Part shown: positions 20,101-61,211 of the stretch, piece by piece
Position numbering within the stretch: position 1 is the stretch's first letter
How the letters are laid out: each line of letters opens with the position of its first letter
Assembly (NCBI GenBank): GCA_965214615.1
Contig: OZ243952.1
Span: forward strand, 2,445,734-2,509,733
DNA length: 64,000 nucleotides
From: Arenicellales bacterium
GTDB lineage: Bacteria; Pseudomonadota; Gammaproteobacteria; Arenicellales; JAJDZL01
Direction: 5' to 3'
Program-made: the position numbers and the translations under genes
Notes under the pieces: model-generated
Seen by the model: only the letters and a program-made list of their open reading frames with translations
Told to the model about the DNA's origin: nothing
Databases searched by the model: none

Positions 20101-23100
20101 CGGAGAGACCGTAGCGACTGTTTTGTCATTACTAGCGATGTTGATCCTAACGGACCCGCCGGTCGGCTCACTTGTCAGCACTACGTTGTATATTTTCTCG
20201 TTTTCCTTGCTGTCAGTCTGTGAAGCGTCCTCTTCTTTCAGGTCGCCAGCCGCGTCAATCGAAATATCCACGCCGCGCTCGTCGTCGTCGGTGATTGTCA
20301 ATATTTTCGACGAAGGCGCACTGACGCCGTTGCCGCCGCTTGCCGCGGCGGAAACTGTGACTTGCTTGTTCGCAGCATCAATATCATTGTCGATCGACGT
20401 AATCTGTACTGTTTCTGTGCTATCGGTTCCGCCTGCTGCAATGGTCAATATTTTGTTGTCAGTCAATGAGAAATCGCTGACCGATGCTCCAGTTCCAGTT
20501 TCAGGTACCGCCGCAACTGTAAGTTCCACGTCTTCGCTGGACTTGCCGCTCAGCGTCGCCGTGACCGTGGTTGTTTGGCCGTTCTCAGTTATAGTCGCAG
20601 CCGATAAATCCAGCGTCAATGTCGGCTTGCTTTCGTCGTCGTTAATCGTCACGGACGTCCCGGTAACGGTTACATCGGCCAAAGTTCCTTCAACACTGAA
20701 TTGCTCGCTCAGTTCGTGAAGATCATTGTCCTCAATCGTCAAGACAGTTTGACCGCTTGCGCTCGGCAAGCCCACTGGGATTGTGATATCCATGTCGACA
20801 ATTGTGTAATCCGAACCCTCTGTCGCACTATCTGCCGCCTTGCCGAACGAAACCGCGACCGTCTTGGGAACCGCAAATCGGGTATCGCCGGTGATCTTGG
20901 CAGTCACTCTGATGGTCGGCGTGACCCCGGGGCCTTCTGTCACGGCAGTCTGATTCCCGCCAGCGGATAAATTGGTATCCACCTCGATGGTCATCGCTGT
21001 CGGCGGATCGTCATCGTCTTCAACCGTGACTTCTACACGAGGCACTACCAGACCTTCATAGTCCGTGCCGGCACTCAGGGTATGGGTAATGTTGGCGATT
21101 CGCTTGTTATCGATGTTGTCAATATTGTCTGCTTTTGAGGTCACCGTGACGGTGCGCGCATTATTCCAGTTGCTGTTTGGAGCAATTGTGATACTGGTCG
21201 GACTGACTGTCGCTACTGACTCGTCACTGCTTTTCAGATTGACCGTCACCGTGCCCGTCGGTCGGCTGGTCAGATTGATTGTGTAGGTGCCCTCGTTCTC
21301 GGTTGTCGAGCTTGTCAAGCCGTCATCTTCTTCATCCAAATCAAATTCTGTTTTGGACACCATTACGCCGCGCACATCGTCGTTGACGATTTTCAGTTCC
21401 GCACTCGCCGGGGCTGCCACGCCGTTACCGCCGCTTGCCGTTGCCGAGACCGTAATTTTCTTGTCCGCGTCATGAATCTCATTGTCGACAGCGGTAATAG
21501 TGACCGTCCCTGTGCTATTCAGCGAATGCGCTGCAATCGTCAGAGTCTTGTTCGCGGTTATATTGAAAGCACCGGAATCCCCGTCATGCTCAGGTGACGC
21601 TGAAATTGCCAGCGTCACCGCCTGAGATGAAGTTCCGTTCATGCTCGCCGTGACGGTTGAACTTCCGCTGGTCGCACCTCCGTTTTCGTCGATGCTGGTC
21701 TCAGATAGTGTCAGCGATACAACCGGAGTGCCTTCATCATCATTCACAGTCACGGCAATATCGCTCGCCGGTACCGCCGAATAGTCGGTGCCTGTAGCGT
21801 TGACCGTATGGGTAATGGTGGTTTCTCTCTTATCTCCGTCGTTGTCGTCAGGGTCATCAACTGCGGTGATTGTTACAGTTTGCGGATCATCCCAGTCATC
21901 CGCATCGAACGTAAGGCTCGTCGCAGAGACTGTGGCAATGGTTGTATCGTCACTCGCCACATTGATTGTGACTTCTCCGGTCGGTTCGCTGAGCAGTACT
22001 ACCTCGTAGGTTTTTTGGTGTTCCTTGTCGGTGTTATCCTGAGTATCCGGGATATCCGCTTCATTCACAGTGACGCTTGATTCGGAGATGCGAATACCGC
22101 GCTCATCGTCATCTTCAATGGTCAAATCTACGTTTGCAGGATTGTCAACGTCATTGCCGCCCTCGGCGTTCGCAGAAACTGTGACGGTCTTGTTGTCCGT
22201 ATCGATATCGTTGTCTACCGTGGCAATTGTTACCGTTCCGGTACTGTCCGTCGTGCCTGCGGCAATGGTGAGCGTCACATTCTCACTGAGCGTGAAATCA
22301 TCATTGGATGCGCGTGTACCGGCCGCAGCAGCAACAGTCAGTGTCACATCCTCGCTGGACTTGCCGGTCAAATCGGCAGTTACGGTTACAGATTCGTCGG
22401 CTTCGGTGACATTGGATTTCGACAATTTCAATCGAACTGTCGGTTTCGTTTCATTGTCTTGAATCGTAATGGTTGTGCCGGCAACCGTGATCCCGTCCAG
22501 GCTGCCTTCAATACTGAACGTCTCGGAGTCCGGTTCGTCCAGGTCGTCGTCCACCACAGTCAAGGTGAAGTTTTCACTGGCACTTGCATCCCCTCTAGGG
22601 AGCTTGATGTTAAAATCTGCCGCGGTATAGTCTGCGGTCGCGGTCGCACTATCGCCATCGGCACCGAACGTAACCGCTACTGTCTTGTCATCGTCGAACC
22701 GAGTTTCGCCGTCAATGGCAACCGTCAGCCTTACGCTTGCGCTGCCGACATTTTCAGCCACTGTGTTCTGAATTCCGGATGAGTTCGTATTGGTGTCGAC
22801 CGTGATCGTCATCGCTGTCGGTTCGTCGTCGTCGTCTTCAACCGTGACTTTGATTTTTTCAGCAGTAACGCCGACATAGTCGTTGTCCTCTCCTTGTGCG
22901 CTCAGGGTGTGGGTAATGTTCGTTGTTCGCTTGTCTTCGTCGTTATCAATGTCGTCGTCCACCGCTGAGATGGTTACCGTCTGCGGCTCATCCCAGGTTG
23001 AAGTAGAAAATGTGAGAGTCTTTTCGTCCACTGTTGCTACAGATTCGCTTTCGCTTGCAACCGTAATTGATACACTCCCTATCGCCGGTTGACTGTTCAG

Positions 23101-26100
23101 CCGGACTGTGTAGCTTTTCTCATTGTCGGTGATGCCGTCATTTTCATCGGCATCGGTTTCTCTCAGTGGCACTTCGGATTCGGAGATAGTCACGCCGCGC
23201 TCGTCGTCATCTTCAACGGTGAGCGTCTTGTCGTCAGGACTCACCACATCAATGCCGCCGCTCGCCGCGGCCGATACCTTGAATGTCTTATCTAGCGCAT
23301 CGATTTGATTTGCCTGCGCGGTAATCGTCACCTCTTCCGTACTGGCTTTTGCGCCTGCAGCAATCGTCAATGTCGTGTTGCTGCTTAAAGCGATATCAGA
23401 TGCAGCCGCCGGCGATACATGCGTGGCACTTACTTCCAACGTTACGGCCTCACTGGCAGTGCCACTCATGCTAGCGGTCACAGTCGAAAGACCGGAGTCT
23501 GCACCGCCGTCTTCAGTAATTTTTTCGGGCGATAGAATTAGAGTGACTTCCGGGGTGTCCTCGTTGTCATCAATCGTGAAAGTGGCCGGAGATATCGTTA
23601 TTGCTGAAAGACCGTCAATCGTGCCGTTCACGCTGAGTGTTTCGTCACGCTCGTATATTTCGTCATCCTTAAGCGTGAGTTCGAATTCCCCTTCTATCGA
23701 ATCAGTGCCCGCAAGAAGTACGATGTCGAATTCCGCTACTGCGGCATAATCATCAGTTACGGTTGCAGGGTAGGTTTTCCCAGGCCCGACGTCGATTGTT
23801 ATGGCTTGATTTTCAGCAAATCGAGTTGCTCCGGAAATTGTCGCTGTGACTGTAACTTCAACTTCACCTGAATCTTCCACAGCCGAGGTCTGCGCACCTG
23901 CAGCCGCGGAAACATCTATAGCCAGATTGATGACGCTCGGAGCGGCGTCTTCGTCGTTGACTGTCACCTCGATGTTATCAATCGTAAGGTCTGCGTAATC
24001 GGTACCTGAACCGTCGATTGTGTGGGATATTTCTGTCGTTCGCTTGTCTTCGGGGTTGTCGATATTGTCGTCCACCGCGGAGACTGTGATCGTCCTCGAC
24101 TGATTCCAGTTCGATGGCGTGAACGTAATGCTGGTCGGGGTAACCGTCGCAACCGACGCAACCGACGTTTCTGAACTTTTTAGATTGACAGTTACATCAC
24201 CCGTCGGTTCGCTGTCGAGTACGATTGTGTATTCATTCTGGGTGCTTTCCACCGAGTTAGTATCAGGGTCGTCCGATTCCCATATCTCAATCTTGGATCC
24301 AGCGGACAGGGTTACACCACGAGTATCGTCATCTTCAATTATGAGTGTTACGGATTCTTCTGGGTCTTCAACATCGTGGCCGCCGCTCGCTGTTGCCGAA
24401 ACAGAAACTTTCTTGTTCTCTGCATCGATTTCATTGTTCACGGCAGTAATCGTAACTGTCTCTGTACTGGCCGTTGCACCCGCTGCTATCGTCAGTGTCT
24501 TTGCATCACTCAGTGTGAAATCAGAATTCACTGCCGGCGCAAGCGCGGCTGCTTTGACCGTAAGTTCAACCGTCTCGCTTGCTTCGCCGCTCAATGTGGC
24601 TTCCACGTTGGTTGATCCGCCGTTCTCACCGATACTTGCATCCGTCAAGCTCAGGGTAACTGTCGGTTTTGGCTCATCGTCGCCTATCGTTATCGTTGCA
24701 GGCGTAAAGGTCACGCCATCAAGCTTTCCCGTTACACTGATTGTCTCGTCCAATTCGTAAATATCGTCGTCGGACAACTTCAGAGTAAACGGTTCGGTAA
24801 AACTTTTTTCCCCTGCCGGTATTTTGAGATCGAAATCTGGCACGGAAGTGTAGTCTTCGCCCTCAGTCGAGGAGTCGCTTGGGATGTCGCCGACAGAAAT
24901 TACGACAGTCTTGTCGGTAGAAAACCGTGTCGGGCTAGTGATTTCGGCGGTGACATTGACCGATAAATCTCCATCGCCTTCATCAACTTCGTCCTGATCG
25001 CCTTGCGTGTCGGTATCGGTGTCTACCGTAATCGTGATTGCGTTCGGCGCAGGGTCATCATCGTTGATTGTGCCGGTTGCCTGGCTCGTTTCAATCGCAG
25101 GTGCCGGAAGCCCGTCTAATGCTCTCGGGGCGGCCAGCGTCACCAGAAAAGTTTCGTTTTCTTCGTCAAGAATGTCTTGCGAAGAGGCGACGGAAAAATT
25201 CTGGTCTGTCACCCCTTCACCAAACGTAAGAGTCGCACTATTTGCGGTGTAATCTTTATCTGCGATGGCGTGATTTGCACCTGTGTCGTCCTTAGTCTGT
25301 GCTCGAACTGAAATCCTATTGCCTGTTGCGCCTGTTCTTTTGACCTTGAAAGCAAGATTGGTCCCTTCTGTTGCCGTAGCAGCTTCGATCGAAAATTTTG
25401 GTTGCGTCTCATCATCCTTGATAGTGAATTGAAGTGGTTTATGACCGTCTGGGCCGTCTGCTGCTTTTAATCCATCGTTAAACGTACTTGTGCCGAAATT
25501 TAAATCAATTTTGAATGTTTCGTCGCGTTCCCACAAATCATCGTCTTCTGGGGAGATCGTTACTGTGCAGACATACTTTGCTGGGCTGCCTTCTTCTGCG
25601 CATTCAGACCCGTCAACTTTATCTGGTGCAAAAAAATCATCTGGTTTTCCTCCCTTTGCTGGATTGACAGGCGTATATTTCAGTGCAAAGCTCGGCTGTC
25701 CCTCGTCCAGATCAACCGTAAACGGCGCATTTTCGGAACTTGTAACCGGACCATTCGGCGGTCTCGCCAATTCAATTTCGAATGTAAGCTTCGCATCCGA
25801 ATCCTCGTCAATCTCGCTACTGCTAAGGTTCCGCAATTTCACCGGAGTTTTGTTGACATCAATCATGACGACTTCGAATCGGTTGCGGTCCCCTCTTTCG
25901 TAGTTGGAATCCAATTTTGATTCATCGATTTCGATTGCGAGTAGTTCGTAGTGGCGCTCGTCTATGCCATCACTTTTTATCTTTAGGGTGGCTGTTCCGG
26001 ATGTCTGTCCCGCACTTATGGTGATAGCAGCGGGCAGATCAAAGTCAGCCGAGTCTACTGTCGTCGATGGAAACCCAATTGGTTTCAGTGGAATCGTCAA

Positions 26101-27282
26101 GTCCTGGGCAGGTGCGGTACCTCTGAGTGTCGCGGTGATGGTTGTGCTTCCGCCTTCGGTTATTTTAGTTCGAGTCGAAGGAAATACACTGCCGGTGAGA
26201 GGAAAATATTGAATGGGAGCTATTCCATGAAGGTACACAATTGCGGCTTTATCGGTTGGCTTCCCATCGTCATCCTGAATCGTAAACGACCTCGTAGCTG
26301 TAGTAGATTCGAGACCGGAACCGCTCTCAACATTAAATAATATGGGTTTGTTCTTACCAACATGAGCACGGAACGTCAGTGCAAACTGTTCATCAGGCTC
26401 AGGAGTATCGTCGTCGATAATTCCCTTTAGGGACCCCGTTGCGGAACTTGTATTCGCCGGAAATGCAAGTCTTTCCGATTCATCAGTGAGTTCAAGCTCG
26501 TCCTTGTCGATATCGATCTTTGATGATGTACCACCGCGGCCAGATGCCACTGTAGCCGTCCTATGATCCGAATCATACAAAGTCCATCCAATCGTAAAAT
26601 CATGTGGGACAGTATTGTCCAAATCAAAGGTAACCTGCTTATTGTTGTTCCCTTTCGTTTCTGGAATTCCGATGGGGGATGAAGGGGTGATGGTTATAGT
26701 GCGTTGCTGCTTTTCATAAATCTCGAGATCTTTTATCTCGTGTCTTTCGTTGACAGTTATCTTCAACCCTAAATACTCGGTCGCTTCATAGGTACTGTCT
26801 CCACGTATCATAATTTCGATTGACTGAGAATCAGTGTCGTTCGCGGCAAAACTCAAAGTGCCACTTACAGGCATGTAATCATCACCCGACGTCGCCTGCG
26901 GTGAAGTCGTAGAATTTATTGTTTCGTACTTTATATCCAGAGGTTCGGAAAGTTCGGAAGGACTTCCTTTACGCTTGAATGTAAATTTCGCCGGATAGCC
27001 TTCGCCGAAACGAAAGCCGGAACTAGGTGTTTCTTGCGAGGCACCTTGATCAATAAGCCCGAGGCATCGAACCTCCAAAATGTCACCAAATAAATCCCCA
27101 AAACCAGGGCAAGGGACACCATCATTGGCTTTTGCCGGCACAAATATTCCAATCAAGACCAGAACTAGGCCTAGTACGGCCTGAGCTTTCCAGTACTCGA
27201 ATAATGAAAGCGGAAAATTGGGGTGGAGGACGTAGCTTGGCGGTTGAACTGGCAGCGAGAACCCTGAATTCTTGCCACTCAT
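7045..27282 (-). CDS. Giant (6,745 aa) acidic repeat protein: extended signal sequence, dozens of Calx-beta-like modules, C-terminal autotransporter-type beta-barrel (adhesin candidate)
   Basis: One uninterrupted 20,238-nt ORF. Modules of ~100-125 aa each end in DDD/DDE. Many carry Calx-beta-like signatures (..DSATEGTDY..F.L.P..D..DE.DE...V.G.L; ..AEADEGEFLEFTVELSAPS...DYEEVSGTIEFSEGEDRKMVQV..). The C-terminus has an alternating hydrophobic pattern and ends GIMLTIGGRW. Confidence 0.9.
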   Translation of the reverse strand: MSGKNSGFSLPVQPPSYVLHPNFPLSLFEYWKAQAVLGLVLVLIGIFVPAKANDGVPCPGFGDLFGDILEVRCLGLIDQGASQETPSSGFRFGEGYPAKFTFKRKGSPSELSEPLDIKYETINSTTSPQATSGDDYMPVSGTLSFAANDTDSQSIEIMIRGDSTYEATEYLGLKITVNERHEIKDLEIYEKQQRTITITPSSPIGIPETKGNNNKQVTFDLDNTVPHDFTIGWTLYDSDHRTATVASGRGGTSSKIDIDKDELELTDESERLAFPANTSSATGSLKGIIDDDTPEPDEQFALTFRAHVGKNKPILFNVESGSGLESTTATRSFTIQDDDGKPTDKAAIVYLHGIAPIQYFPLTGSVFPSTRTKITEGGSTTITATLRGTAPAQDLTIPLKPIGFPSTTVDSADFDLPAAITISAGQTSGTATLKIKSDGIDERHYELLAIEIDESKLDSNYERGDRNRFEVVMIDVNKTPVKLRNLSSSEIDEDSDAKLTFEIELARPPNGPVTSSENAPFTVDLDEGQPSFALKYTPVNPAKGGKPDDFFAPDKVDGSECAEEGSPAKYVCTVTISPEDDDLWERDETFKIDLNFGTSTFNDGLKAADGPDGHKPLQFTIKDDETQPKFSIEAATATEGTNLAFKVKRTGATGNRISVRAQTKDDTGANHAIADKDYTANSATLTFGEGVTDQNFSVASSQDILDEENETFLVTLAAPRALDGLPAPAIETSQATGTINDDDPAPNAITITVDTDTDTQGDQDEVDEGDGDLSVNVTAEITSPTRFSTDKTVVISVGDIPSDSSTEGEDYTSVPDFDLKIPAGEKSFTEPFTLKLSDDDIYELDETISVTGKLDGVTFTPATITIGDDEPKPTVTLSLTDASIGENGGSTNVEATLSGEASETVELTVKAAALAPAVNSDFTLSDAKTLTIAAGATASTETVTITAVNNEIDAENKKVSVSATASGGHDVEDPEESVTLIIEDDDTRGVTLSAGSKIEIWESDDPDTNSVESTQNEYTIVLDSEPTGDVTVNLKSSETSVASVATVTPTSITFTPSNWNQSRTITVSAVDDNIDNPEDKRTTEISHTIDGSGTDYADLTIDNIEVTVNDEDAAPSVINLAIDVSAAAGAQTSAVEDSGEVEVTVTATISGATRFAENQAITIDVGPGKTYPATVTDDYAAVAEFDIVLLAGTDSIEGEFELTLKDDEIYERDETLSVNGTIDGLSAITISPATFTIDDNEDTPEVTLILSPEKITEDGGADSGLSTVTASMSGTASEAVTLEVSATHVSPAAASDIALSSNTTLTIAAGAKASTEEVTITAQANQIDALDKTFKVSAAASGGIDVVSPDDKTLTVEDDDERGVTISESEVPLRETDADENDGITDNEKSYTVRLNSQPAIGSVSITVASESESVATVDEKTLTFSTSTWDEPQTVTISAVDDDIDNDEDKRTTNITHTLSAQGEDNDYVGVTAEKIKVTVEDDDDEPTAMTITVDTNTNSSGIQNTVAENVGSASVRLTVAIDGETRFDDDKTVAVTFGADGDSATATADYTAADFNIKLPRGDASASENFTLTVVDDDLDEPDSETFSIEGSLDGITVAGTTITIQDNETKPTVRLKLSKSNVTEADESVTVTADLTGKSSEDVTLTVAAAAGTRASNDDFTLSENVTLTIAAGTTDSTGTVTIATVDNDIDTDNKTVTVSANAEGGNDVDNPANVDLTIEDDDERGIRISESSVTVNEADIPDTQDNTDKEHQKTYEVVLLSEPTGEVTINVASDDTTIATVSATSLTFDADDWDDPQTVTITAVDDPDDNDGDKRETTITHTVNATGTDYSAVPASDIAVTVNDDEGTPVVSLTLSETSIDENGGATSGSSTVTASMNGTSSQAVTLAISASPEHDGDSGAFNITANKTLTIAAHSLNSTGTVTITAVDNEIHDADKKITVSATASGGNGVAAPASAELKIVNDDVRGVMVSKTEFDLDEEDDGLTSSTTENEGTYTINLTSRPTGTVTVNLKSSDESVATVSPTSITIAPNSNWNNARTVTVTSKADNIDNIDNKRIANITHTLSAGTDYEGLVVPRVEVTVEDDDDPPTAMTIEVDTNLSAGGNQTAVTEGPGVTPTIRVTAKITGDTRFAVPKTVAVSFGKAADSATEGSDYTIVDMDITIPVGLPSASGQTVLTIEDNDLHELSEQFSVEGTLADVTVTGTSVTINDDESKPTLTLDLSAATITENGQTTTVTATLSGKSSEDVELTVAAVPETGTGASVSDFSLTDNKILTIAAGGTDSTETVQITSIDNDIDAANKQVTVSAAASGGNGVSAPSSKILTITDDDERGVDISIDAAGDLKEEDASQTDSKENEKIYNVVLTSEPTGGSVRINIASNDKTVATVSPDSLFFSNSTWNVERDVTITSVNDDIDNTDEERTTTITHEVIAVSTDYENVKADSIAVTVDDDDVPPTAMKLTVDVSSVGEAAGQTAIAVTATITSRTRFATETDVSVDVGKSSDSATEGTDYANVDRFIIKIPAGAASKTESFNLTPTNDTTDEIDETISIEGTLSRVSVTPAAVTITDNDATPTVTLSLSTNSIAENGGSSRVMANLSGTSSEDVTLTVAATPVSPAVVGDFTLSETTTLTIAAGGISSSGQVSVTAVNNNVDAANKQLTISATAQGGHGVANPGSLPLTITDDDTRGITVTPTTVTMEEKDNAGTKNTAEHQKTYKIRLNSEPSGGTVTINTQSADSEVATVLPSSLTFDTSDWSTEKSVVVTAVDDIIDNAGNSRTTTITNSVSAADTDYKDESADPVNVTVNDDDVEPTAVKITVSANSGADASQISINEGATATTVDVTATITSSTRFATSETVAVKVGNSGDTAAETTDYANVADFEIVIPAGAASATESFTLTPTDDAIDEVDEVLSVKGTLAGVTVTDASVKILDNEDTPTVTLSLTNGSISENGGSSQLAASLSGVSSEALTLSVTVRASSGASKNDLTLSGTMLNIPANSTNSNSITISAVDNDIDTDDKEFTVSASATGGHGVGSPESLTLTVQDEDTRGITISSTTLVLDEVDNPSTTIDEHERIYVIVLDSEPTGAVKVSLTNEDETAAVVTPVMHTFTSGNWNQPQAFTVTSKNDNIDNTDDRKTTKISHAVSADGTDYAGETIDDVSVTVNDDDATPRRIKLEVDTNVTSSGKQRRIREPAGQTEVEVTAKVVGSSRFADAQRIDVSVGKSGDTASEGTDYNTISGVVITIPAGAESASKRFNLTPINDTVDETNERITVDGTGLDTPSLNIVEDTITIIDDEGTPTVSLVLGASAIGENAGSTTVTASLDRASGANISLVVAVTPVDPAVAGDFTLSSNTTLTIAAGSLASTETVSITAVDNDIDTPNKELTVSATATTASLDMRLHVEDPVAEKLEITDDDVSGVSISATKIEIDEADDGDTAATENKKIYEIELDSEPIGTVTIDIGSDDTTVATVLPARITFDKDDWDTAQEITVTAVDDDIDNTDDERTAIISHTVRSTEPDYVKVTAASVDIEVADVDETPTEMTVTVDTSIRDDGVQGTVGEGAGSPTMRATVAIVGDIRFATSQTVAITFGKEGDGATNPADYSVSNFNITIPAEMGSASTTFAFTVSDDDLDEPNEQLSVEGQLAGVEITGTSITIEDNDATPTATLSLSPTTINESGQGTTSTVTAALSSKSSQAITIEVAAAAGEGAVSSDFTLSANTTLTIAAGQTASTGTVTVAAVNNEVDAADKEVTVSGTTTGGGVSDPNSQTLTIADEDARGVVVSAASAGVSVAEVDDALTSSAKENEATYTVMLTSEPSGGAVTIEVESEATTIATVSPVSLNFTDTTWNVAQTVTVTGIDDNIDNTGGSRATTITHTVDADDTDYEHETAGSVAVTVNDDEVLPTVSMSLADASISESGGSTTITASLTGKSSEDITLSLSVSPSAGAAAGDLTLSGNSLTIAAGTIQSDPVTIESVNNDIDTANKEFTISATASGGNDIDDPDDQTLTITDDDERGIIVTPVALTVDEVDNPDTAAVSENEKSYEVKLNSQPTGAVTVNINNEHNSVATVSAASLSFGPSDWKTAKSVKVTAVDDNIDNTGGERTASIAHSVAATNTDYNGETALGVTVTVTDDDAAPDALTLSVDTDSATDGEQTELAENAGATTVTVTAEIDGDTRFADDKTVSITIGNSTDDSATEGTDYSATDVTLTLPAGKASVSGTFTLTPTVDSVDEPDETVTVEGSLSSIDTVAAATITITDNNDKPTLSLAITDSDDSISEDGGSTSITASLDGVSSQDVTLTVSTTAVSPAVAADFTQTGTTLTIAAGSTSSTETVTIAAVDNDIDAANKTFTVSATATGGNDIADPANQTLTIIDDDERGVTVSKSAVTVEEADGGASEHQDTYTVVLDSEPTGGTVTINPASGANTIATVSPASLAFTASNWDDEQTVTVTAVDDNVDNTDNERTTQITHTVSAGGTDYSSETVDSVDVTVNDDDGTPVVRLVLTPASIEEDGGSSTGTTTVTATMGGESSEAVTLTVSTAPDGSASASDLTQSGTTLTIAAGYRASTGTVTIAAVDNDIDAANKTFTVSATATGGNDIADPANQTLTITDDDERGVTVSKSAVTVEEADGDASEHQDTYTVVLDSEPTGGTVTINLSSDANTIATVSPASLAFTASNWDDEQTVTVTAVDDDVDNTDNERTTQITHMVSASGTDYSDETVDSVDVTVNDDDGTPTVSLVLTPASIEEDGGSSTGTTTVTATMGGESSEAVTLTVSAAPVGSAAAADITQSGTTLTIAAGSRDSTGTVTIAAVDNDIDAANKTFTVSATATGGNGIAAPDSETLTITDDDQRGVTVSKSAVTVEEADGGSSEHQDTYTVVLDSEPTGGTVTINLSSDANTIATVSPASLAFTASNWESERTVTVTAIDDDIDNANNKRTTQITHTVSAGGTDYSAETVGNVDVTVNDDDGTPAVTLKLTPASIDENGGATSGTSTVTATLSGKSSAAVTVTVAAAAGTNTSSSDFTLSANKTLTIAADTTASTGVVTIAAVDNDVDAPDKSVTVSATATGGGVSDPSDQTLTITDDETTPTVALILDPTTINESGSSNSSTVTATLSGESHEAVTVEVAAAAGTDTSSSDFTLSTNKTLTIAAGFTASTGAVTIAAVDNDVDAPNKSVTVSGTATGGGVSDPSDRMLTIADDEGVPTVTLNLSANSIDESGSDNASTVTATLSGKASAAVEVVVSVPDGAPVTQSGTTLTFAAGTTTSTGTVTITAADNDVDAPNATVAVSGAANGGGVLNPAGLTLTIEDDDERGVSVAADPIVIDEADNAGTSGALEHQSTYTIVLDSEPSGGSVTINLKVVDTNVATIDENSVTFTASNWNRARTITVQAVADQIDNTGNSRTTQITHTMSATGTDYSTITSVPSIAVTVNDDDGAPVVSLVLTPLKVKENGGLTSGVSTVTATMSGASSQQVSLTVSAAANSPATSSDFQLAGSTLTIAAGSRASTGTVTIASIDNKVDSDDKTITVSAVASGGNGLNSPSPKTLTIEDDDVRGVSISKSAIKLSEADDAGTQNTKENQAQYTIELESQPTGTVAVNIASSNTNVATVDKNSVQFTASNWLLPQTVIVTAVQDSVDNAEDKRVTTITHTVSAANTDYEDVSADNVDITVDDDDGSPMISIDNPQVEEGDGEDAKSLEFTVTLAPQSSSTVTVDFADTGTGTASAGTDYEQFASGQLTFAPGEESKKITVTVKPDSNDESDETIVLRLSNPANAGFLGAASTIDGTGTITDNDEAPSVSVGDVVSVREGDDPQTTTEMTFEVSVDAVSVNEVVVNYQLSGTASAASDYVEPAQLMVSIAPGTKTATIAIPIKGDTIDEGLETIVVTLIQPSNANLSSVQGATVATGNIIDDDFTITPELDTIYEDETLAYTVSGIESAYSSLKLRIGQASSASLGSDFKLLSGNDAELAVNHSLTPVNGRIKFKVKALADDVAEIDESIVLILDDSTNSLGVQLGVLALIDGARPVAGVDVSKTSMALVEGGAAGEYTLVLTKAPDPGTSVTITATSNLPSAVAVNASGGTPGPAATLTFTEQNWSREQTVTVVPQLDDDIADAEAVITHSVAGTGSYASVTADSVQVSVQDSGPAMTILDAEADEGEFLEFTVELSAPSTGNVAITWNTLPQTATPNLDYEEVSGTIEFSEGEDRKMVQVFAMNDAVSEPPEMFSVELSSPRNTRLDRGSATGTILDVQTATKEWMARFGRTITEQVIDGIGSRIQHDGTQGIEGTFAGIAFSDSAADHGGILGHASDTCGNGTWSQARHRHERVLNGHCADTGRESKSMSWIDVLTSSSFSLTEEHGDGEYTSMWARGVKSGFDSKEGTVSLSGEVITGMIGADWSSEDSRIGVILSHSEGDGDIEYDNGTAGTVSSSITALVPWASEAISERITIWGAVGYGEGDLSIGAKDDDALTTDMDWSMVAAGVRGKLIEAEKGNGFSLDFASDAFWNRTASDSAQGIAAEEAEVTRLRAGIEGGWRLQIDSGVTLNPTFELGGRYDGGDAETGFGIEFGGGLAWSMPGDGLEFAVEGRSLITHEDEDFETWSYSAQLVYDSKPSTQRGFSSTIGYELDNGATVGVEALLDNGVPTGETDDAIESQWRFTAAYGYAMNGRPVIAKPNFSYVLGESSREYQLGWQFIPVRRRNDELSLEIVADYAENEGERPESGIMLTIGGRW
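12330..14270 (-). repeat. Near-identical 711-bp (237-aa, two-module) tandem repeat, about 2.7 copies, inside the giant gene
   Basis: Antisense shadow ORFs recur at 12398, 13109 and 13820 (also 12972/13683) with a 711-nt period. 12501-12621 is identical to 13212-13332 (121 nt). The protein units ..ERGVTVSKSAVTVEEADG..EHQDTYTVVLDSEPTGGTVTIN.. differ at only a few residues. Confidence 0.85.
27127..27282 (-). other. Extended N-terminal signal-peptide-like region of the giant protein
   Basis: MSGKNSGFSLPVQPPSYVLHPNFPLSLFEYWKAQ is a ~34-aa n-region. It is followed by the hydrophobic core AVLGLVLVLIGIFV and PAKA|NDG (AxA-type site). Cleavage is not verified. Confidence 0.5.
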
Positions 27283-27314
27283 TCCACCCCCCCCCTCATA
27301 TCAAGGTGGGAATG
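27279..27314 (-). promoter_or_regulatory. Translation-initiation region of the giant gene: SD-like G tract, start-codon-occluding hairpin, 6-codon uORF
   Basis: mRNA: CAUUCCCACC-uugauaugaGGGGGG-GGGUGGAAUG. CAUUCC pairs with GGAAUG (includes the AUG) and ACC pairs with GGU, leaving one bulged C. The uORF is AUG AGG GGG GGG GUG GAA UGA (27299..27279); its UGA overlaps the main AUG (AAUGA). Function is inferred only. Confidence 0.35.
27287..27295 (-). repeat. Homopolymeric G9 tract (C9 on + strand) 4 nt upstream of the giant gene's ATG
   Basis: + strand reads attcca-ccccccccc-tcatatc. On the mRNA strand this is ..gatatgaGGGGGGGGGtggaATGagtggc. Confidence 0.95.
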
Positions 27315-29778
27315 AATCCGTAGTGCGTATCCTTGAATATCAAAGCGACGGGAATTGCGATGGCAGTTCCGTCTTAACCAATCAAACACCAGAATATTTC
27401 CTAAATATAATAAATATATGATAGATATCTTATATTGCACAATAGATTGCGCCTATTTTAACAAATTTGCAATCAGAATCCATCCAATTCATTCAGTCTA
27501 GAAAATTAGACTTGAATGAATGGCAAAGGCCGAGTTGGGCAACTCTCAATGAGTCATCCTGGACGTTGAATCGCAAACTGAATTGTTAGGTAGTATTGCA
27601 GCTATTCTCGTCCAGCAAATGAAGCGCTAAAGTGAGGGGTGCCGATAAATAGAGAACACCACCAAGCGCTTAGAGAAGGTTGAGTTGGAGATAGGATTGG
27701 TTCGCGTGCAGTTTTTGCAAATACCATGGTCATATAATTGTTCTACATCTACGAAATTGTCAAAATACGTTTCGGTTACTTGGTAATGTCAGCACAATGA
27801 CTGCTTCGACAAGAATCGAAAGCTGAAAAACGGATGCGGACACCTCAAGAGCAATACGCGTCAGACGTTATGAGCAGTTCTCAGACGAGTGTGTATGGTG
27901 CGCATATGCCGAACCAGCGAAACTGAGCATTTCATTGAAAAAACTTCCATCGTTGTGGGAAGTTTGCACCTTGGACCAAGGCATGAGGATCCGCGAATAT
28001 CTGCTGCGAGTCAGTTTCATCCTGACTCTTCCTATCACATCTGCAAATTGTTCCATGGTTTCTCAAACCCCGCCGCACCTTGCAAAGATCGACGTCAGTC
28101 GCACTAGAATCCGTGTCATGATGTTCAACCGCTGCACCACCTAGACGATGCAATTATGATCAATCACCTTGTCCAAATCCAACCGGAACCGGTGAAAGGA
28201 ATAAATTTATATTTCAGTCGTAATTATAACATCATGAGATTTTTTTTCGAATGTCCATTTTTCGACGAGGTGCCTCAGATTTCGGCGTCAACCCAATGAA
28301 CGCATCGGGTTGCTACTCATTTTCTTGCTATCCTTCGATAGTGTCGGATACTTTCAAAATGCCCCTATATTGCGACACAGCCTATGGATGCCGAATTAAT
28401 CTGAACTTCATTGACCAAATGTAATTCCGGTTGCACCCTATATCGTTAAATGAAACATTTACCGTCGATTTGTCGAGTTAAAACTGTGATTGCACTGAAT
28501 ATACGTGTGTTCGGATCCACGCCGAGCAAAACCATAGCCTTGGCTTGCACTGGCGTCATTTGCACCACCACCGGCACCGTCGCGTCAATCCTTCCAGGCA
28601 GCAAATCCTCATTGAACGTCAAGGTCGACAATTCGTCGAGCACCATAGCAAAGTTGTGCACCGGATAGTCGTCTTTTGGTCTTTTTTGTCACCGCCCTTT
28701 CCATTGCCCGGTCCGATACCTGCACCTTGGCCACCGCTGAGACTCGGCACGCAAGCACCGAGTCGTGTTCGTCTTCGAATAACACCGGCGCAAACCTTGC
28801 GCGCATGTGCCGTTCGAGTGTTGCCGCCGGTCGGACGTATTTCCGCAGCGATTGTTAAGCGCAATCTAATTCAGGTGACCCAGAGTCAACGCCGCGAGGC
28901 CGGCTGCGTTTGCAAGTGGAGCGTTTGCGAGGGTATCAAGAACCTGAGCGATATCGCCACAGTCGAATTCGGTTTAGCGACCGTCCGCTTGCTGTCGATA
29001 CGCGGCGTTCAAAAAAGTCGGCAAATGCCAATTGCTGCCTAACCCTACTCCTACGCTAATCTACCCAGGTCTGGAATTGGGAGAAAGTTCGCAGAATTCG
29101 GTTCATAGACACACACGTACCGAGATGGCGCAGCCGACTGCCCGAAGACTTGGCGAACCAATGTGGTTCTGCCAATTTGGAGCGGACAGGTTGCGATCGT
29201 CAACCACCGATGAATCTCCCGCAGGCGGTCGACTGGCGTGGATATCTGACCTCGTGCATAGGATGCCATAGCAGCAATCCAATGTATTGAGCGAATTTAC
29301 TCGAAACATTTCATCACTCGACGAAATCGATGGCCGCAGAGATTCGAGGCGCAACCTGGCTGGTTCTTGCTGCGCCGGGAGGTTTCCTTACAGGCAGGCG
29401 TACGTACGGCGAACGTAATTCGAGTAATCATTCGACTCTGACGCGGCGCGCTCACAGATGACCTGATCCCAACCTCCGTTGACACGGAATGGAAGCATGG
29501 GATCGAGGATGCTCGTCGGTCTGCAAAATACAATCCGGATGGTATTCACCGCGATACCTGCGAACAATTGAATGAAGCGCGAATTTGAACTGCTTCGGCC
29601 ATTTCGGTTATTATTTTTTCATTCTGGTCAGGAAATTAGCGACTCATTCCCAGTATCGCAACTGAACGCGAGCAGCGCTCCGCGATCCGAACAGAGCAAC
29701 CGGTTGCTCAGAAACACCTAAACCCACAGAATCAGAGACATCACGTTCACATTCAATTGAAATTCGTAAATCACCGCA

Positions 29779-30798
29779 ATGAATTTTGACGCCGCCAATG
29801 GACGGATCCTGGATCTGTCTCACGAGCAAAGCACTGCCCGCTTGGACCGGCAAGTGACCGATGCCCGCGCGTGGCTCGGCAGCGACATTGCCCCATCCGA
29901 ATGCCTGATCAGCATCAGCGACGCGGTACGCACCGAAATACTCGCCATGGCAGACGCAATGCGCGCCAATCCGCTTCCGACCGTGCTGAGGCGCGCGTCA
30001 CAGTTTGAAATGCCGAATATTCTCGAGCTTATGCGCGATGTTCGAAACCGTCTCAACAAGCCGCCGCACATCGCCGTGATCGACGCTATGCCGCTGGATG
30101 ACCTGGAAACCGACCAGGCGATTGACGCCTACTGGGTTCTGGGCCAGGCCATCGGACGCAATGTCGCGCAAAAGTGGGACGGAACAATGGTCTACCACGT
30201 ACGCGACACCGGCACTCCGTGGCAATACGGGGTACGCGGCTCCTACACCGCGGTCGAACTGCTGTTTCACAATGACAACGCTTTCGGAATCGCCTTGCCG
30301 CACTACGTCGGCCTGCTGTGCCTGCAGCCGGCAAAGCAAGGCGGGATGAGTCGATTCTGCAGCCTCCACACGATCCACAACCGAATGCTTCGGCAATATC
30401 CGGCCGAACTGGGTCGATTGTACGAACCGGTTCTGTGGGACAGGCAGGCCGAACATCCCCAAAACGATCCGGTGGCAGCCAGTGCCCCGGTGTTCTCCTA
30501 CACCGGCAGCCGACTCAGAACCCGGGCCAATCCGAGCCTGATCTTCAACGGTTACAAGGTCGCGGGCATTGAAATGGATCCGGCAACGTCGGATGCCGTC
30601 GACGCGCTGAAAGAAGTTTCTGAAGACCCGGAACTGTGGTTTGAAATGCCGATCGAGCGCGGCCACATGCAGTACATCAACAATATCGACATCGCCCACT
30701 ACCGAAGCGAATTTGTCGATTTTCCAGATCCTGGAAAAAAGCGGCATCTGGTACGAACCTGGCACCGCGATACGGGACAAGTCACCTACAACGGATAG
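29779..30798 (+). CDS. TauD/TfdA-family Fe(II)/2-oxoglutarate dioxygenase, substrate unknown
   Basis: 339 aa. HxD iron motif in ..VELLFHNDNAF.., distal His/Arg region ..NNIDIAHYRSEF...KRHLVRTW. The overall layout is typical of the clavaminate-synthase-like TauD family. The 260-aa ORF on the opposite strand is rejected. Confidence 0.8.
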   Translation: MNFDAANGRILDLSHEQSTARLDRQVTDARAWLGSDIAPSECLISISDAVRTEILAMADAMRANPLPTVLRRASQFEMPNILELMRDVRNRLNKPPHIAVIDAMPLDDLETDQAIDAYWVLGQAIGRNVAQKWDGTMVYHVRDTGTPWQYGVRGSYTAVELLFHNDNAFGIALPHYVGLLCLQPAKQGGMSRFCSLHTIHNRMLRQYPAELGRLYEPVLWDRQAEHPQNDPVAASAPVFSYTGSRLRTRANPSLIFNGYKVAGIEMDPATSDAVDALKEVSEDPELWFEMPIERGHMQYINNIDIAHYRSEFVDFPDPGKKRHLVRTWHRDTGQVTYNG

Positions 30799-30802
30799 GA
30801 TT

Positions 30803-30848
30803 CAATCCTTACATCAAACCACAGCTAACTCGGGGGCTTGATTTTGTA
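30803..30848 (+). repeat. Left terminal inverted repeat of the IS4-like element
   Basis: caatccttacatcaaaccacagctaactcgggggcttgattttgtat matches the reverse complement of 32412-32458 (caatcctttcatcaaaccacagttaactcggggcttgatgtttatac) with 4 mismatches and a 1-nt indel. Confidence 0.85.
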
Positions 30849-31707
30849 TCAGTTTGAGATTTTCTGTGCATTCATTCCTCGGAACATGATTAACGCCGGG
30901 GTGAACAAGGCAAGCGCCTCCCACAATTTTCGAGTTCCCGGCAAAGGCTGACTTTTTTTCGACCCGAGCCCGGCGACACTCGCAAGGTCGATGACAAAGG
31001 TGCGGATCGTCGGATCCGGCTTCGGCGGCCCCCGGGAACCGCGAATGCCGCGATAGTGTAAATACCGATACTGTTCTTCGACCTGATCGGCTCCCACCAC
31101 ATCCCTTGCCAAGACGCCCGGATTGCTGTGGGCCATGTAATTCAGATCATGGATGTGACAAGCGGTGACCGCATCGAACACCAGGTATTTGTGTAAATAA
31201 TCGGCATGGTCGAATTGGCGCGAACCGACGCTCGTGCCGTTTTTCAATACGCTGAACAGGTCTCAATGTGCCATCGCAACTCATACCAGCGCACCACCTT
31301 GAGCGCCTGGACGGCATCGGCCCCGCCATCGGTTGTCAGCAACAGCCAGTGCAGTGGCTCGGCATCCCTGGGCGGTTCGATCTCGTCTAAACGCTCACCG
31401 CAAGCATGCGCACCGGCGATTTGTCCTTTTCATTAACCGGAGCCTGCAATCCGGCAGGCGGGGAAAACTCACTGACACGCCCGGCAACGCCGGCGCGGGC
31501 CGTCGGCAGCGAAAACCCTGCCTTGTCTGCAAGCCCTGCCAGCGCCTTTCGCGCCGAACTTATCGCAGGACGCCCCTTGCGGTTATGCTGTTCGTCTAGC
31601 TCGCACAGCAGACGGGCAAGATCGCCGCGCGTTGTCGACGGCTTCGATAACTCCTCCATCACCTGCGTGACAGTCTCGGCACTGAAATGGCGCATTCCAA
31701 TTTGCAT
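30849..31707 (-). pseudogene. IS4-family (Tn5-like) DDE transposase, 5'-truncated and frameshifted
   Basis: Three frames join as ..RKGRPAISSARKA..SPVRMLAV / GERLDEIEPPRDAEPLHWLLLTTDGGADAVQALKVVRWYELRWHIETC / FSVLKNGTSVGSRQFDHADYLHKYL...LASVAGLGSKKSQPLPGTRKLWEAL. By eye this is colinear with Tn5 Tnp ..PLKWLLLTS...YTHRWRIEEFHKAWKTG...IARLGGFMDSKRTGIASWGALWEGW. At least 2 frameshifts, and the N-terminal ~190 codons are missing. Confidence 0.7.
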
Positions 31708-31783
31708 GCCGATATGATGGCATAATCATTTTCCGAAGTGAACTATGGCCATATGAACGGTTTGTAAGCGTCTTTGAAGATGT

Positions 31784-32062
31784 CTATGCCGTAACTGATA
31801 AGCGTACACCCAACGCATGCATCAACCGGTGGATGGTGTGCCATTTGGGTTGTACCTGACCATTAATCACTTTGTAGAGACTCTCGCGGTTCAGCCTAGC
31901 TGCTTGAGCCACCTGAGCGACACCCTTACGCTTGACGGCATGACCTAAGGCCACGACAAAGACAGCAGGGTCATCGTCCTCGTAGGCATCAGTCAGATAT
32001 TGAGATAGATCATCGTCGACTAGTAAATGATCAAAGGGATTATAGTCCGTCAGCTTAGTCAT
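31784..32062 (-). CDS. higA: HigA-family addiction-module antidote protein (HTH antitoxin)
   Basis: MTKLTDYNPFDHLLVDDDLSQYLTDAYEDDDPAVFVVALGHAVKRKGVAQVAQAARLNRESLYKVINGQVQPKWHTIHRLMHALGVRLSVTA matches the antidote-protein pattern (..PFD..YL.D.E....YL........DP.....ALG.IA...G....A...G..RE.LY..L......P.....V.KV..ALG..L). It starts 4 nt downstream of the toxin gene. Confidence 0.85.
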   Translation of the reverse strand: MTKLTDYNPFDHLLVDDDLSQYLTDAYEDDDPAVFVVALGHAVKRKGVAQVAQAARLNRESLYKVINGQVQPKWHTIHRLMHALGVRLSVTA

Positions 32063-32066
32063 GGTC

Positions 32067-32366
32067 TCAAACCTCCAATTCGCTCAATATTCGATGCGCG
32101 CGGGCAATATCGCGTGATTGACTGGACTTATCACCAGCGCACAACAAAATGAGAAGGTCGCTATCACGTATCGAAAAGTATATCCGGTAACCTGGCCCTG
32201 CGAATACTCTCATTTCACTCACGCCCTGCCCCACTGGCTTGGTGTCGCCAAGATTTCCGGCAACTGCTCGGTCCAATCGTTGAGCGATAGCCCTCGCAGC
32301 CTGGCGGTCGCGGACCCGAGATAGCCAGCGATTGAAGTCATCGGTGGTAACTACGTGATAGCGCAT
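32067..32366 (-). CDS. higB: HigB/RelE-superfamily addiction-module killer protein (toxin)
   Basis: MRYHVVTTDDFNRWLSRVRDRQAARAIAQRLDRAVAGNLGDTKPVGQGVSEMRVFAGPGYRIYFSIRDSDLLILLCAGDKSSQSRDIARAHRI matches the killer-protein pattern (F..WL..L.D..A...I..R..R...GN.GD.KPVG.GVSE.RI..GPGYR.YF......L..LL.GGDKS.Q..DI..A). The ORF-track start at 32384 is an alternative. Confidence 0.85.
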   Translation of the reverse strand: MRYHVVTTDDFNRWLSRVRDRQAARAIAQRLDRAVAGNLGDTKPVGQGVSEMRVFAGPGYRIYFSIRDSDLLILLCAGDKSSQSRDIARAHRILSELEV

Positions 32367-32411
32367 ACGCGCATTGTAGCTCATGAGCTACACGGAGACA
32401 AGGCAACTTAC

Positions 32412-32458
32412 GTATAAACATCAAGCCCCGAGTTAACTGTGGTTTGATGAAAGGATTG
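32412..32458 (-). repeat. Right terminal inverted repeat of the IS4-like element
   Basis: See the left repeat. The similarity also shows up as matching C-terminal tails of two shadow ORFs (..DRIQSLHQTTANSG vs ..DRLQSFHQTTVNSG). Confidence 0.85.
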
Positions 32459-32944
32459 CAACCTGTCCGGGCATTGATCCGGTGGTTGGATGCCGCCAGC
32501 CTGATGTGCATATCCTCGGCTTCGCCGTTGACCTCGGCGATTGCCGCGACAAATTCGCAGGACATTCCGGTGATTGCAGTTTCCGCAATCGATCTTTGCA
32601 CGGGCCTGCGTATCACATGCCGACAATATTTCGCGTCTGACTGAAGGGAACGTAAATAAATTACCCTTCCAATGGAATTGATGGTGTTATAAATGGCGAG
32701 ACAGAAAAGTTACACAAAGAAATCTTTTACGCAAATAGCAAGCAACACTAAATAAGGATGTTGCTGTCTTTACGAAAGGACCGGAAAGGGAAGTTCGCTC
32801 ATTGAATCGGTATTTCAAAAATAGGCAGATGATTTAGTTTATTTATTTTATTCATAGACTTAAATTAATTATTTAATTTATTACCTGATATTAAGTGTCA
32901 AATCTTGGAACAGGAGGGCGGATATTGTAACGCTCAGCGTAAAG

Positions 32945-33423
32945 TTGGAATATGTGGAACCCGAAGTAAGCAGAACCCTGCTGGTGCCATATGATTTGAC
33001 ACTAGACGACTTGCACGACACTTTGCAACGTGCCTTCGGTTGGGACAATAGTCACCCATGGCTGTTCGAACTTGCAAGACAATCTAGAAGACAGGTTGTT
33101 CCCGAATGGCTATTCGAAGATGACGAAGTATGCGAAACTACCGTCCGTGACACCATGTCCGCACTTTGATGTATTTGTACGACTTCGGAGACAAATAGGA
33201 GCACCGCAAACGTATCGGAAGAAAGGCAAAGGCCAAGCGAGGTCAGCTGTATCCTCAGTTGGTCGAAAGGAAGGGAAGGACGCCGCCGGAGGACGTCGGC
33301 GGACCTCCGGGCTACGCACATTTTTTGAAATCACTCGGCAGGGACCACTATCCAAAACGCGGGGTTTATGTGCAGTGGTATCAAGCAAAGTTTGACCGTT
33401 TCGATACGAAAGAGGAAAACTAA
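32945..33423 (+). pseudogene. Plasmid pRiA4b ORF-3-like family protein, inactivated (frameshift plus TAG nonsense)
   Basis: ..LSVKLEYVEPEVSRTLLVPYDLTLDDLHDTLQRAFGWDNSHPWLFEL.. (frame 1, stop at 33167-69) continues after a frame slip as LMYLYDFGDK*EHR...YPQLVERKGRTPPEDVGGPPGYAHFL... The family hallmark YDFGDxWEH has its TGG replaced by TAG. No clean ATG start. Confidence 0.7.
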
Positions 33424-33658
33424 AACAGAACGTTTTGTCGTGGGCTGATTTCTTGTCCGGAAGTTTTGAAGACGAATGACATTTCCGCAACCGGATATCA
33501 GCACGGACAGGACGACGGATGCCGCAACAGATGCAAAAAGAGTTTCAAAGATTTCAGTCAAGGGCAGTCATTTGCAGCATGCATGTTGCAATGCAAATTC
33601 ATTGTAACAGGGCAGTACTAGGTTTCGCGACGTTCATCAATTTCCATTCGCAGCCGCT

Positions 33659-35622: not shown

Positions 35623-35630
35623 CAGCGACT

Positions 35631-36485: not shown

Positions 36486-36599
36486 ATTGCAGAATCCTTA
36501 GTTGACTGATTGATACGCCTGGCGCATTCTCGACGCCTGAAAGAGGACGGCATTATAGACGCTGCGACACGCCTCGGCTATGCTGCGTTGCAGGTTTTT

Positions 36600-61173: not shown

Positions 61174-61211
61174 AGACGCACCTGAGTCTGAAGACCGGGA
61201 CATGAACAAGC

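Follow-up and report, generated by a model that had tools for sequence, protein, structure and literature searches.

We examined the start region of a very large gene in a stretch of 64,000 nucleotides (nt) from the genome of an Arenicellales bacterium (contig OZ243952.1; the whole stretch is referred to as the window and all positions are window positions unless a related locus is named). A run of nine G residues (G9) lies just upstream of the start codon of an open reading frame (ORF) of 6,745 amino acids (aa), within a short upstream ORF (uORF) whose stop codon overlaps that start. The features of the gene and of its start are as follows.

7045..27282, minus strand: giant gene, 6,745 aa, carrying Calx-beta repeats and, at its C-terminus, a ~480-aa module related to autotransporter beta-domains
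27127..27282, minus strand: signal peptide of 52 aa, with an extended n-region, the core AVLGLVLVLIGIFV and A-K-A (residues 50-52) before the predicted cleavage site
27282..27280, minus strand: main start codon ATG, which opens the 6,745-aa ORF 7045..27282
27295..27287, minus strand: G9 homopolymer (C9 on the plus strand), Shine-Dalgarno (SD)-like element 4 nt before the main AUG, and codons 2-5 of the uORF
27299..27279, minus strand: six-codon uORF MRGGVE-stop (ATG AGG GGG GGG GTG GAA TGA), with the upstream ATG at 27299..27297

The minus-strand mRNA around the start reads ...CAUUCCCACCUUGAUAUGA-G9-UGGA-AUG-AGU. A first-pass annotation of this DNA had placed the run 4 nt before the AUG of the 6,745-aa ORF and had described an upstream AUG at 27299 opening a six-codon uORF with a stop overlapping the main AUG, and on both counts the sequence and coordinates are as it described them. 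The uORF TGA shares bases with the main ATG 27282 (AATGA, an AUGA stop/start overlap). An in-frame TGA at 27303..27301 closes the main frame just upstream, hence ATG 27282 is the first possible start of the main ORF. It is also the sole start that takes in the whole signal peptide, with no in-frame alternative start before the hydrophobic core, and it is kept in three related loci introduced below (L001, L002 and L085). A second frame continues the pattern upstream, with TTG ATA TGA at 27304..27296 (minus strand) and the TGA overlapping the upstream ATG, and L085 likewise holds a three-codon frame (ATG GCA TGA, L085 5840..5848) with a TGA overlapping its upstream ATG; this chain of ATGA overlaps upstream of the uORF may be a matter of chance.

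The signal peptide (K32, the hydrophobic core and AKA) was judged by inspection of the translation, and its region had no match to the ESPR family. Calx-beta domains are spread along the length of the product, the passenger being made up of Calx-beta-containing repeats, and the protein ends in ...TIGGRW, with an aromatic residue (W) in last position. No direct Pfam, NCBIfam or PDB sequence match was found for the last 484 aa. These residues have 6,173 homologs at E <= 0.001, and in every one of the 150 listed the match to the C-terminal module is found at the C-terminal end of a large protein or close to it (150/150). PF03797 was matched above its cut-off of 26 bits by two of the eight full-length homologs tested (49 and 39.7 bits). 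Because of the PF03797 matches of these homologs, the C-terminal position of the module and the terminal W, the product is treated here as an autotransporter-type giant surface protein, an assignment by transitive homology. Searches with the N-terminal 400 aa gave one weak Calx-beta match at the protein level and none in the GTDB genome scan.

The run is predicted to be a powerful ribosome-binding site (RBS). When the canonical anti-SD sequence was compared with the 22 nt upstream of the ATG of 26 window genes, the giant gene gave the strongest duplex (-11.9 kcal/mol), many of the genes compared having a weak SD or none, and this bears out the earlier description of the run as the SD-like element of the real start. 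GGGGGUG pairs with CACCUCC via one G-U pair, and the 3' edge of the run stays 4 nt from the AUG at every run length. The position and composition of the run suggest that it acts as the SD element of the giant gene while being, at the same time, a slippage-prone simple repeat.

As a repeat, the run is a strong statistical outlier in the window, beyond chance. No other G/C homopolymer in the 64 kb exceeds 6 nt, the next longest being a single C6, followed by runs of five. Extrapolation of the observed run-length decay gives an expectation of ~0.004 runs of at least 9 nt per 64 kb, and the one seen is thus a ~250-fold excess; a run of nine was reached in 13 of 300 third-order Markov simulations, in which the model was trained on sequence that itself holds the G9 run. 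The run and its flank have no second copy within the window and are not a repeated or mobile element. A G9 run is intrinsically prone to slippage, and some heterogeneity in its length is expected with or without selection.

Since the run lies upstream of the main AUG with a fixed 3' spacing, no change in its length can frameshift the 6,745-aa ORF. From G7 to G10 the frame of the main ORF, the SD-AUG spacing and the energy of a predicted hairpin (see below) are all unchanged, and only the phase of the uORF shifts. At lengths of 3n (G6, G9, G12) there is a short uORF with its stop overlapping the main start. At 3n+1 (G7, G10, G13) the upstream ATG is fused in frame and adds MRGG..G, which at G10 amounts to the six residues MRGGGG; the frame arithmetic of the first-pass annotation, which had the upstream ATG come into frame at G10 or G7, is confirmed. 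At 3n+2 (G8, G11) the upstream ATG opens an out-of-frame ORF of 58-59 codons that ends 160 nt inside the gene. The suggestion that expression is phase-variable has accordingly to be narrowed: the class of surface protein and a G10 allele read from an assembly speak for it, but the length of the run cannot put the main ORF out of frame.

Folding of the start region places the run in a stem-loop.

27276..27325, minus strand: predicted stem-loop burying the G run and part of the AUG, with 5' arm 27316..27303 (UUCAUUCCC.CCUU) and 3' arm 27296..27283

In the minimum free energy (MFE) structure, at -21.7 kcal/mol, UUCAUUCCC and CCUU pair with the run and CACU.CG/UGAGUG closes over the AUG. The run is predicted to be paired with a probability of 0.88 and the main AUG with one of 0.56, against 0.04 for the upstream AUG in the apical loop. 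A different hairpin had been proposed for this site, CAUUCC/GGAAUG plus ACC/GGU; it is a valid structure of nine canonical pairs with a bulged C, but it reaches only -9.1 kcal/mol and the MFE fold uses another register. The stem persists in a 161-nt fold (z-score there -1.18), and the hairpin itself has a z-score of -1.76, with 11 of 200 shuffles folding as well. With the run held fixed, RBS pairing ranks in the top 2.3% when upstream sequences are shuffled and in the top 0.3% when they are replaced by natural 35-mers, and the MFE is unexceptional versus the same controls.

Folds of G7, G8, G9 and G10 share the same architecture at -20.9 to -21.7 kcal/mol, and in a temperature series the MFE moves from -37.5 kcal/mol at 5 C through -32 at 15 C to -17.7 at 45 C with unchanged pairing probabilities. 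Given that the fold neither depends on run length nor melts, the stem is no thermometer, nor is it tuned through the length of the run. The earlier idea that the hairpin gates translation is weakened by its independence of run length, by the missing melting at 5-45 C and by its absence from L085. An RNA thermometer was hence rejected, although the SD and AUG are paired in silico, and so was a hairpin tuned by run length, given the equal energies from G7 to G10; an intramolecular G-quadruplex was dropped by reasoning, as a single G9 plus GG cannot give four proper G-runs. In L002 the stem is kept, a C-G pair becoming U-G and the other two substitutions falling in the bulge and the loop. The L085 leader is no more structured than its shuffles (z = +1.09), and no Rfam match was found in 27000..29900.

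Two further alleles of the same species come from contigs of the ENA metagenome assembly ERZ25070917 (L001 and L002), which were reached via members of the TauD cluster; five more neighbour proteins led to the same two contigs, with no further conspecific contig found. Flanking genes are 98-99% identical between the window and these contigs, and the signal peptide is 97-99% identical in both. L001 has G9 and a uORF identical to that of the window. L002 has G10, three substitutions near the run (CA to TG, and A to G) and a uORF fused in frame, and the gene caller places the start of its giant gene at the upstream ATG. It therefore shows the state that had been predicted for G10, with a length that is read from a metagenome contig and may be a homopolymer error. 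Comparison of the tract among relatives, which had been put forward as a check, gives readings of G9, G9 and G10 for the three conspecific alleles and an interrupted run in L085, but the homopolymer lengths of such contigs are unreliable.

Between L002 and the window, identity is 97% over the leader and signal peptide but 77.8% in the passenger at 26000..27131; L001 is a mosaic, with 100% identity at 26000..27131 and 91% at 19800..24000. Hypervariability and mosaicism of the passenger among co-occurring strains are what one sees in a surface antigen that diversifies. The gene is whole in the window only, being split into pieces of 1029+465+1025+4222 aa in L001/L084, 820+128+273+5460 aa in L002 and 1043+202+2776.. 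aa in L085. These splits stem from single-base indels, mostly at non-homopolymer sites, and reflect either genuine decay into a pseudogene or errors of the consensus, the gene being repetitive.

A more distant homolog, P0301 (51% identity over the N-terminal region), was found by a search with the L002 N-terminus and lies on a 767-kb ENA contig (locus L085). Its leader aligns with that of the window over ~190 nt, and the conserved leader reaches at least 90 nt upstream of the run. The L085 start region reads ATG AGG GGC GGG AAA GAA TGA GC, with the same 17-nt offset between upstream and main ATG, the same six-codon uORF (MRGGKE-stop) and the same stop/start overlap; 4 of 13 nt differ from the window between the AUGA at the uORF start and the main ATG. 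The run is interrupted in L085 (GGGGCGGGA) and its anti-SD duplex is weaker (-8.1 kcal/mol). Judged from this alignment, the uORF geometry and the G-rich SD are ancestral, and the perfect G9 and the masking stem are specific to the species of the window. L085 carries another homopolymer near its 5' end, a T8 (L085 5995..6002) at the end of the signal-peptide coding region that leaves signal peptide and passenger in different frames (a T7 would restore the frame), and the gene caller consequently starts the L085 gene at a TTG after the run. A scan of metagenome DNA with the start region gave 0 matches. The gene of one C-terminal homolog, P0141, is cut by an N gap in its scaffold, leaving its start unreadable.

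Long G/C tracts also occur elsewhere in related loci. Roughly 0.5 Mb of Arenicellales-type loci (our approximate total) was scanned, and G/C runs of at least 9 nt were found at four loci, the window included. The other three are as follows.

L009, 19992..20000: C9 in codons 5-7 of the gene for an SWM-repeat/Ig-like protein of 785 aa, which begins like a signal peptide; in frame
L004, 14893..14903: C11 after MMKMLKLNS, shifted by one base from the frame of a textbook signal peptide; GGAG SD before the ATG
L085, 4428..4436: C9 just past the signal peptide of a 468-aa paralog of the N-terminal region of the giant protein; in frame

All four tracts (4/4) lie between the RBS and approximately codon 35 of genes with export-like products, the signal peptides being judged by inspection. 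By our estimate such positions make up a few percent of the genome, and placement of the four tracts at 5' ends by coincidence seems unlikely, on a definition of tract position that is post hoc and a small sample of four loci.

From this evidence we propose, with a probability of about 40%, that the G9 run is an SD element and slippage-prone repeat within a conserved uORF, and that slippage grades, rather than switches, initiation at the main AUG. Slippage in the run would reset the phase of the uORF and leave the main ORF untouched; with the 4-nt spacing fixed and the stem energy equal from G7 to G10, neither a frameshift nor a refolding could silence it. At 3n (G9), ribosomes reading the uORF could reinitiate at the main AUG via the stop/start overlap; at 3n+1 (G10), the upstream AUG would be fused and the signal peptide extended by MRGGGG; at 3n+2 (G8, G11), the long out-of-frame ORF should compete with initiation at the main AUG. 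The outcome would be a heritable, reversible and graded modulation of translation initiation of a costly adhesin, superimposed on an RBS that is strong yet mostly buried in a stem. Translation of the uORF, its role in reinitiation or interference, and slippage of the run in vivo are presumed in this scheme. The locus is plausible as a graded contingency locus of a known kind, and is probably a new member of the group of upstream homopolymers on adhesin genes.

A bolder form of the proposal is a three-state translational 'gearbox', in which the homopolymer is both SD and uORF body, single-base slippage moves the uORF through coupled, fused and interfering states, and these set three heritable expression levels with the 20-kb ORF always intact. 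The locus would then exemplify a broader and so far undescribed role for 5' G/C tracts in genes of exported proteins among host-associated or marine Arenicellales. We consider this extended version unlikely.

Several observations weigh against a graded contingency locus. Ribosomes should go on initiating at the main AUG whatever the run length, and the predicted effect may therefore be small. The upstream ATG is preceded by no SD-like sequence, and an upstream ATG within 20 nt is not rare, with a chance of ~1 in 4 by our estimate. No further long G/C tract occurs in the 64 kb, hence there is no sign of a dense phasome here, and mutS, which lies in the window, is intact. Only three alleles of the species are present in databases (G9 in the window, G9 in L001 and G10 in L002), a small sample. 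The names of the L001 and L002 contigs (ctgN_19x_l) resemble metaMDBG output, and we take them to be assembled from long reads; because the contigs look like long-read assemblies the G9/G10 difference is uncertain, and we give about even odds that it is real. Furthermore, the C11 of L004 and the T8 of L085 are 5' homopolymers one base over the in-frame length in similar assemblies, and the extra base marks either OFF states or systematic +1 homopolymer errors.

The main rival explanation holds that the run is a static, strong G-rich SD, a few substitutions away from an ancestral GGGGCGGGA-type RBS, with its length unused, G10 a long-read homopolymer error or neutral variant, and the uORF a by-product of conservation around the RBS. 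We regard this as a serious possibility that falls somewhat short of an even chance. It is consistent with the interrupted, non-slippery element of equal length in L085, with the independence of main frame, SD-AUG spacing and hairpin energy from run length, and with the intact mutS, although a static element leaves it to chance that a perfect G9, ~250-fold over expectation, sits exactly at the RBS of a hypervariable surface-protein gene and that three further G/C tracts of at least 9 nt are all at the 5' ends of exported-protein genes. The contig indels bear on it from both sides. Other indels do occur, including several frameshifts within the giant gene and a T8 at 28240 that is T9 in L001, which argues against trust in the homopolymer lengths of these contigs; flanking coding DNA, however, is indel-free, with none versus the window in 5,045 bp of L001 flanking genes, and the L002 indels outside the giant gene all lie at 29.5-33.6 kb, in or beside a variable island, with none at 33577-38538. 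The intrinsic slippage of a G9 run also counts against a static element, heterogeneity being expected anyway.

Alternatively, the predicted stem (UUCAUUCCC.CCUU with the G run) may close the RBS until temperature, an RNA-binding protein, a small RNA or translation of the uORF opens it. Such structural gating seems to us unlikely. The stability of the stem at -21.7 kcal/mol, its persistence in the 161-nt fold, the high pairing of the run and AUG (0.88 and 0.56), the rank of RBS pairing within the top 0.3-2.3% of fixed-run controls and the fit of all three L002 substitutions near the run to the fold speak for such a mechanism. Whole-sequence z-scores are nevertheless only -1.76, and -1.18 in the longer context, any C/U-rich stretch pairs with a G9 run, and a stem still at -17.7 kcal/mol at 45 C that shows no melting from 5 C upwards makes a poor temperature gate; nor is there support from the unstructured L085 leader (z = +1.09) or from Rfam, which gave no match in 27000..29900.

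It is improbable that the run acts on transcription, its length altering the mRNA level and not translation, even though poly-G tracts of this type are known: the uspA1 G(n) tract shifts mRNA ~20-fold between lengths (PMC7302503), and poly-G tracts in Treponema pallidum tpr promoters control transcription (PMC7864442). The run of the window ends 4 nt from the AUG and is bracketed by no -35/-10 pair on either strand, by scan or by inspection, and, as conserved leader sequence continues for at least 90 nt beyond the run, the promoter is placed farther from the gene. The number of sites in a sigma-70 scan did not exceed that in shuffled sequence, with none close to the run, and a role of the run as promoter spacer was rejected by inspection of both strands, with no usable -10/-35 pair.

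Finally, a classical ON/OFF frameshift switch, with the upstream ATG 27299 as true start, the run intragenic, G10 ON and G9 OFF, is very improbable: the L002 (G10) gene is called from the upstream ATG and the other tracts of related loci are intragenic near the 5' end, but the upstream ATG has no SD while the run provides the downstream one with a strong SD, that downstream ATG stays in frame whatever the run length and hence allows no OFF state, and L085 keeps the out-of-frame 17-nt offset with a non-slippery element, making the stop/start overlap, and not the fused frame, the conserved state.

The region upstream of the giant gene, 27283..29778, spans 2.5 kb of low G+C (~45-51%) without a convincing ORF and is bounded on its far side by a divergent TauD-family gene. 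Both conspecific contigs conserve this region well, apart from 28747..29333, which is missing from L002. One short element in it is shared by all four loci compared.

27356..27374, minus strand: 19-nt leader block AGACGGAACTGCCATCGCA, invariant among the window, L001, L002 and L085

This block may be a promoter or regulatory element. The GG-N10-GC spacing of AGACGGAACTGCCATCGCA resembles sigma-54 -24/-12 elements, which would imply a transcription start site near 27345; no enhancer-binding protein gene was found among the window genes scanned. A scan of metagenome DNA with the block gave six matches, all attributable to chance and without flanking similarity. Further upstream, an AT-rich near-palindrome (27404..27436) lies 120-155 nt before the start codon and a perfect 9-nt inverted repeat (ATTCATTCA, 17 nt, TGAATGAAT; 27487..27521) lies 205-240 nt before it, both of which are possible protein-binding sites. 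The T8 at 28240..28247 (A8 on the minus strand; T9 in L001 and T8 in L002) is the second-longest homopolymer of the window and falls within the -35 hexamer and spacer of a promoter-like match at 28250..28223 (minus strand; TCGAAA, 16 nt, TATAAT, with TG), ~940 nt upstream of the giant gene.

The closest relatives of the neighbouring TauD protein (63-71% identity) are encoded on chromosomes labelled 'MAG: Arenicellales bacterium' (MAG, metagenome-assembled genome), and in the genomes of these relatives that were scanned no giant gene adjoins TauD, so there is no synteny. A 2.7-kb segment of the window (30819..33496) is missing from L001 and represents a small variable island. Two small adjacent ORFs at 31784..32384 (minus strand) resemble a HigB/HigA-type toxin-antitoxin pair, the counterpart of which in L002 matches dnstrm_HI1420 and HTH_31. 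Elsewhere in the window, a gene for an MttB-family methyltransferase (59617..61242; Pfam MTTB E = 9e-108) contains a match to Rfam PYLIS_3 (60024..60123, minus strand; 58 bits, with a gathering score of 38).

A graded contingency locus at the giant gene would have partial counterparts among known systems. In Moraxella catarrhalis, uspA1 encodes an antigenically variable adhesin of the autotransporter family and has a G(n) tract upstream of its ORF; whether its mRNA is low or high depends on tract length over G8-G12 (PMC7302503). The window shares with it a poly-G upstream of an autotransporter-family adhesin ORF and a strong between-strain variation of the passenger. The uspA1 tract, however, acts on the mRNA level with graded expression over G9-G12, whereas the run of the window is the predicted SD itself, ends 4 nt from the AUG and lies inside a uORF. 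The uspA1 tract is also said to lie ~30 nt upstream of the ATG. UspA1 is moreover a trimeric autotransporter, whereas the 6,745-aa protein of the window, with its Calx-beta passenger, looks like a classical monomeric one. The tpr genes and tp0126 of T. pallidum carry promoter runs of G7-G11 that vary within isolates and modulate expression of outer-membrane proteins (PMC7864442). A G run upstream of a surface-protein gene is again the common feature, but the T. pallidum tracts sit in promoters and change the spacing of their elements, while no promoter brackets the run of the window.

A poly-G indel in the 5' untranslated region of Mycobacterium tuberculosis espR alters translation efficiency and not frame (PMC11898584). 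In espR a longer 5' hairpin results from the added G and the RBS becomes accessible, whereas the predicted fold in the window is independent of run length and the run is the RBS. Campylobacter autotransporter genes reportedly carry intragenic poly-G/C switches near the 5' end. Such switches are described for M. catarrhalis mid/hag as well (PMC7302503). The window resembles both in having a G/C run of at least 8 nt at the extreme 5' end of a surface-protein gene, and the tracts of L004, L009 and L085 look to be of this type; unlike in mid/hag and Campylobacter, the run of the window lies outside the main ORF, so that there is no frameshift OFF state.

With AUGA translational coupling and leader-peptide uORFs, the start region shares a stop overlapping a start, an SD-like element inside the upstream frame and a conserved geometry; it differs from the usual coupled uORFs in having only six codons, no SD of its own and a body that is largely a mutable homopolymer, and coupling is here a prediction. 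As in ROSE and fourU thermometers, the SD and part of the AUG are sequestered by pyrimidines upstream, but at -32 kcal/mol (15 C) to -17.7 (45 C) the stem is far too stable for one, and it is not kept in L085. In the literature searched, no phase-variable tract was described that forms the SD itself or that lies in a start-overlapping uORF.

The locus also has consequences for annotation. Gene callers place the start of the giant gene differently with run length, and 5' homopolymers in long-read MAGs (L004, L085) yield apparent frameshifts that may be biology or error. To our knowledge, repeat-driven phase variation is described almost only from pathogens. If the run does slip and output changes with it, phase variation would be extended to Arenicellales, an uncultured marine gammaproteobacterial order, and in an unusual layout, in which the repeat is the ribosome-binding site within a conserved uORF and would exert graded control over a surface protein of 6,745 residues.

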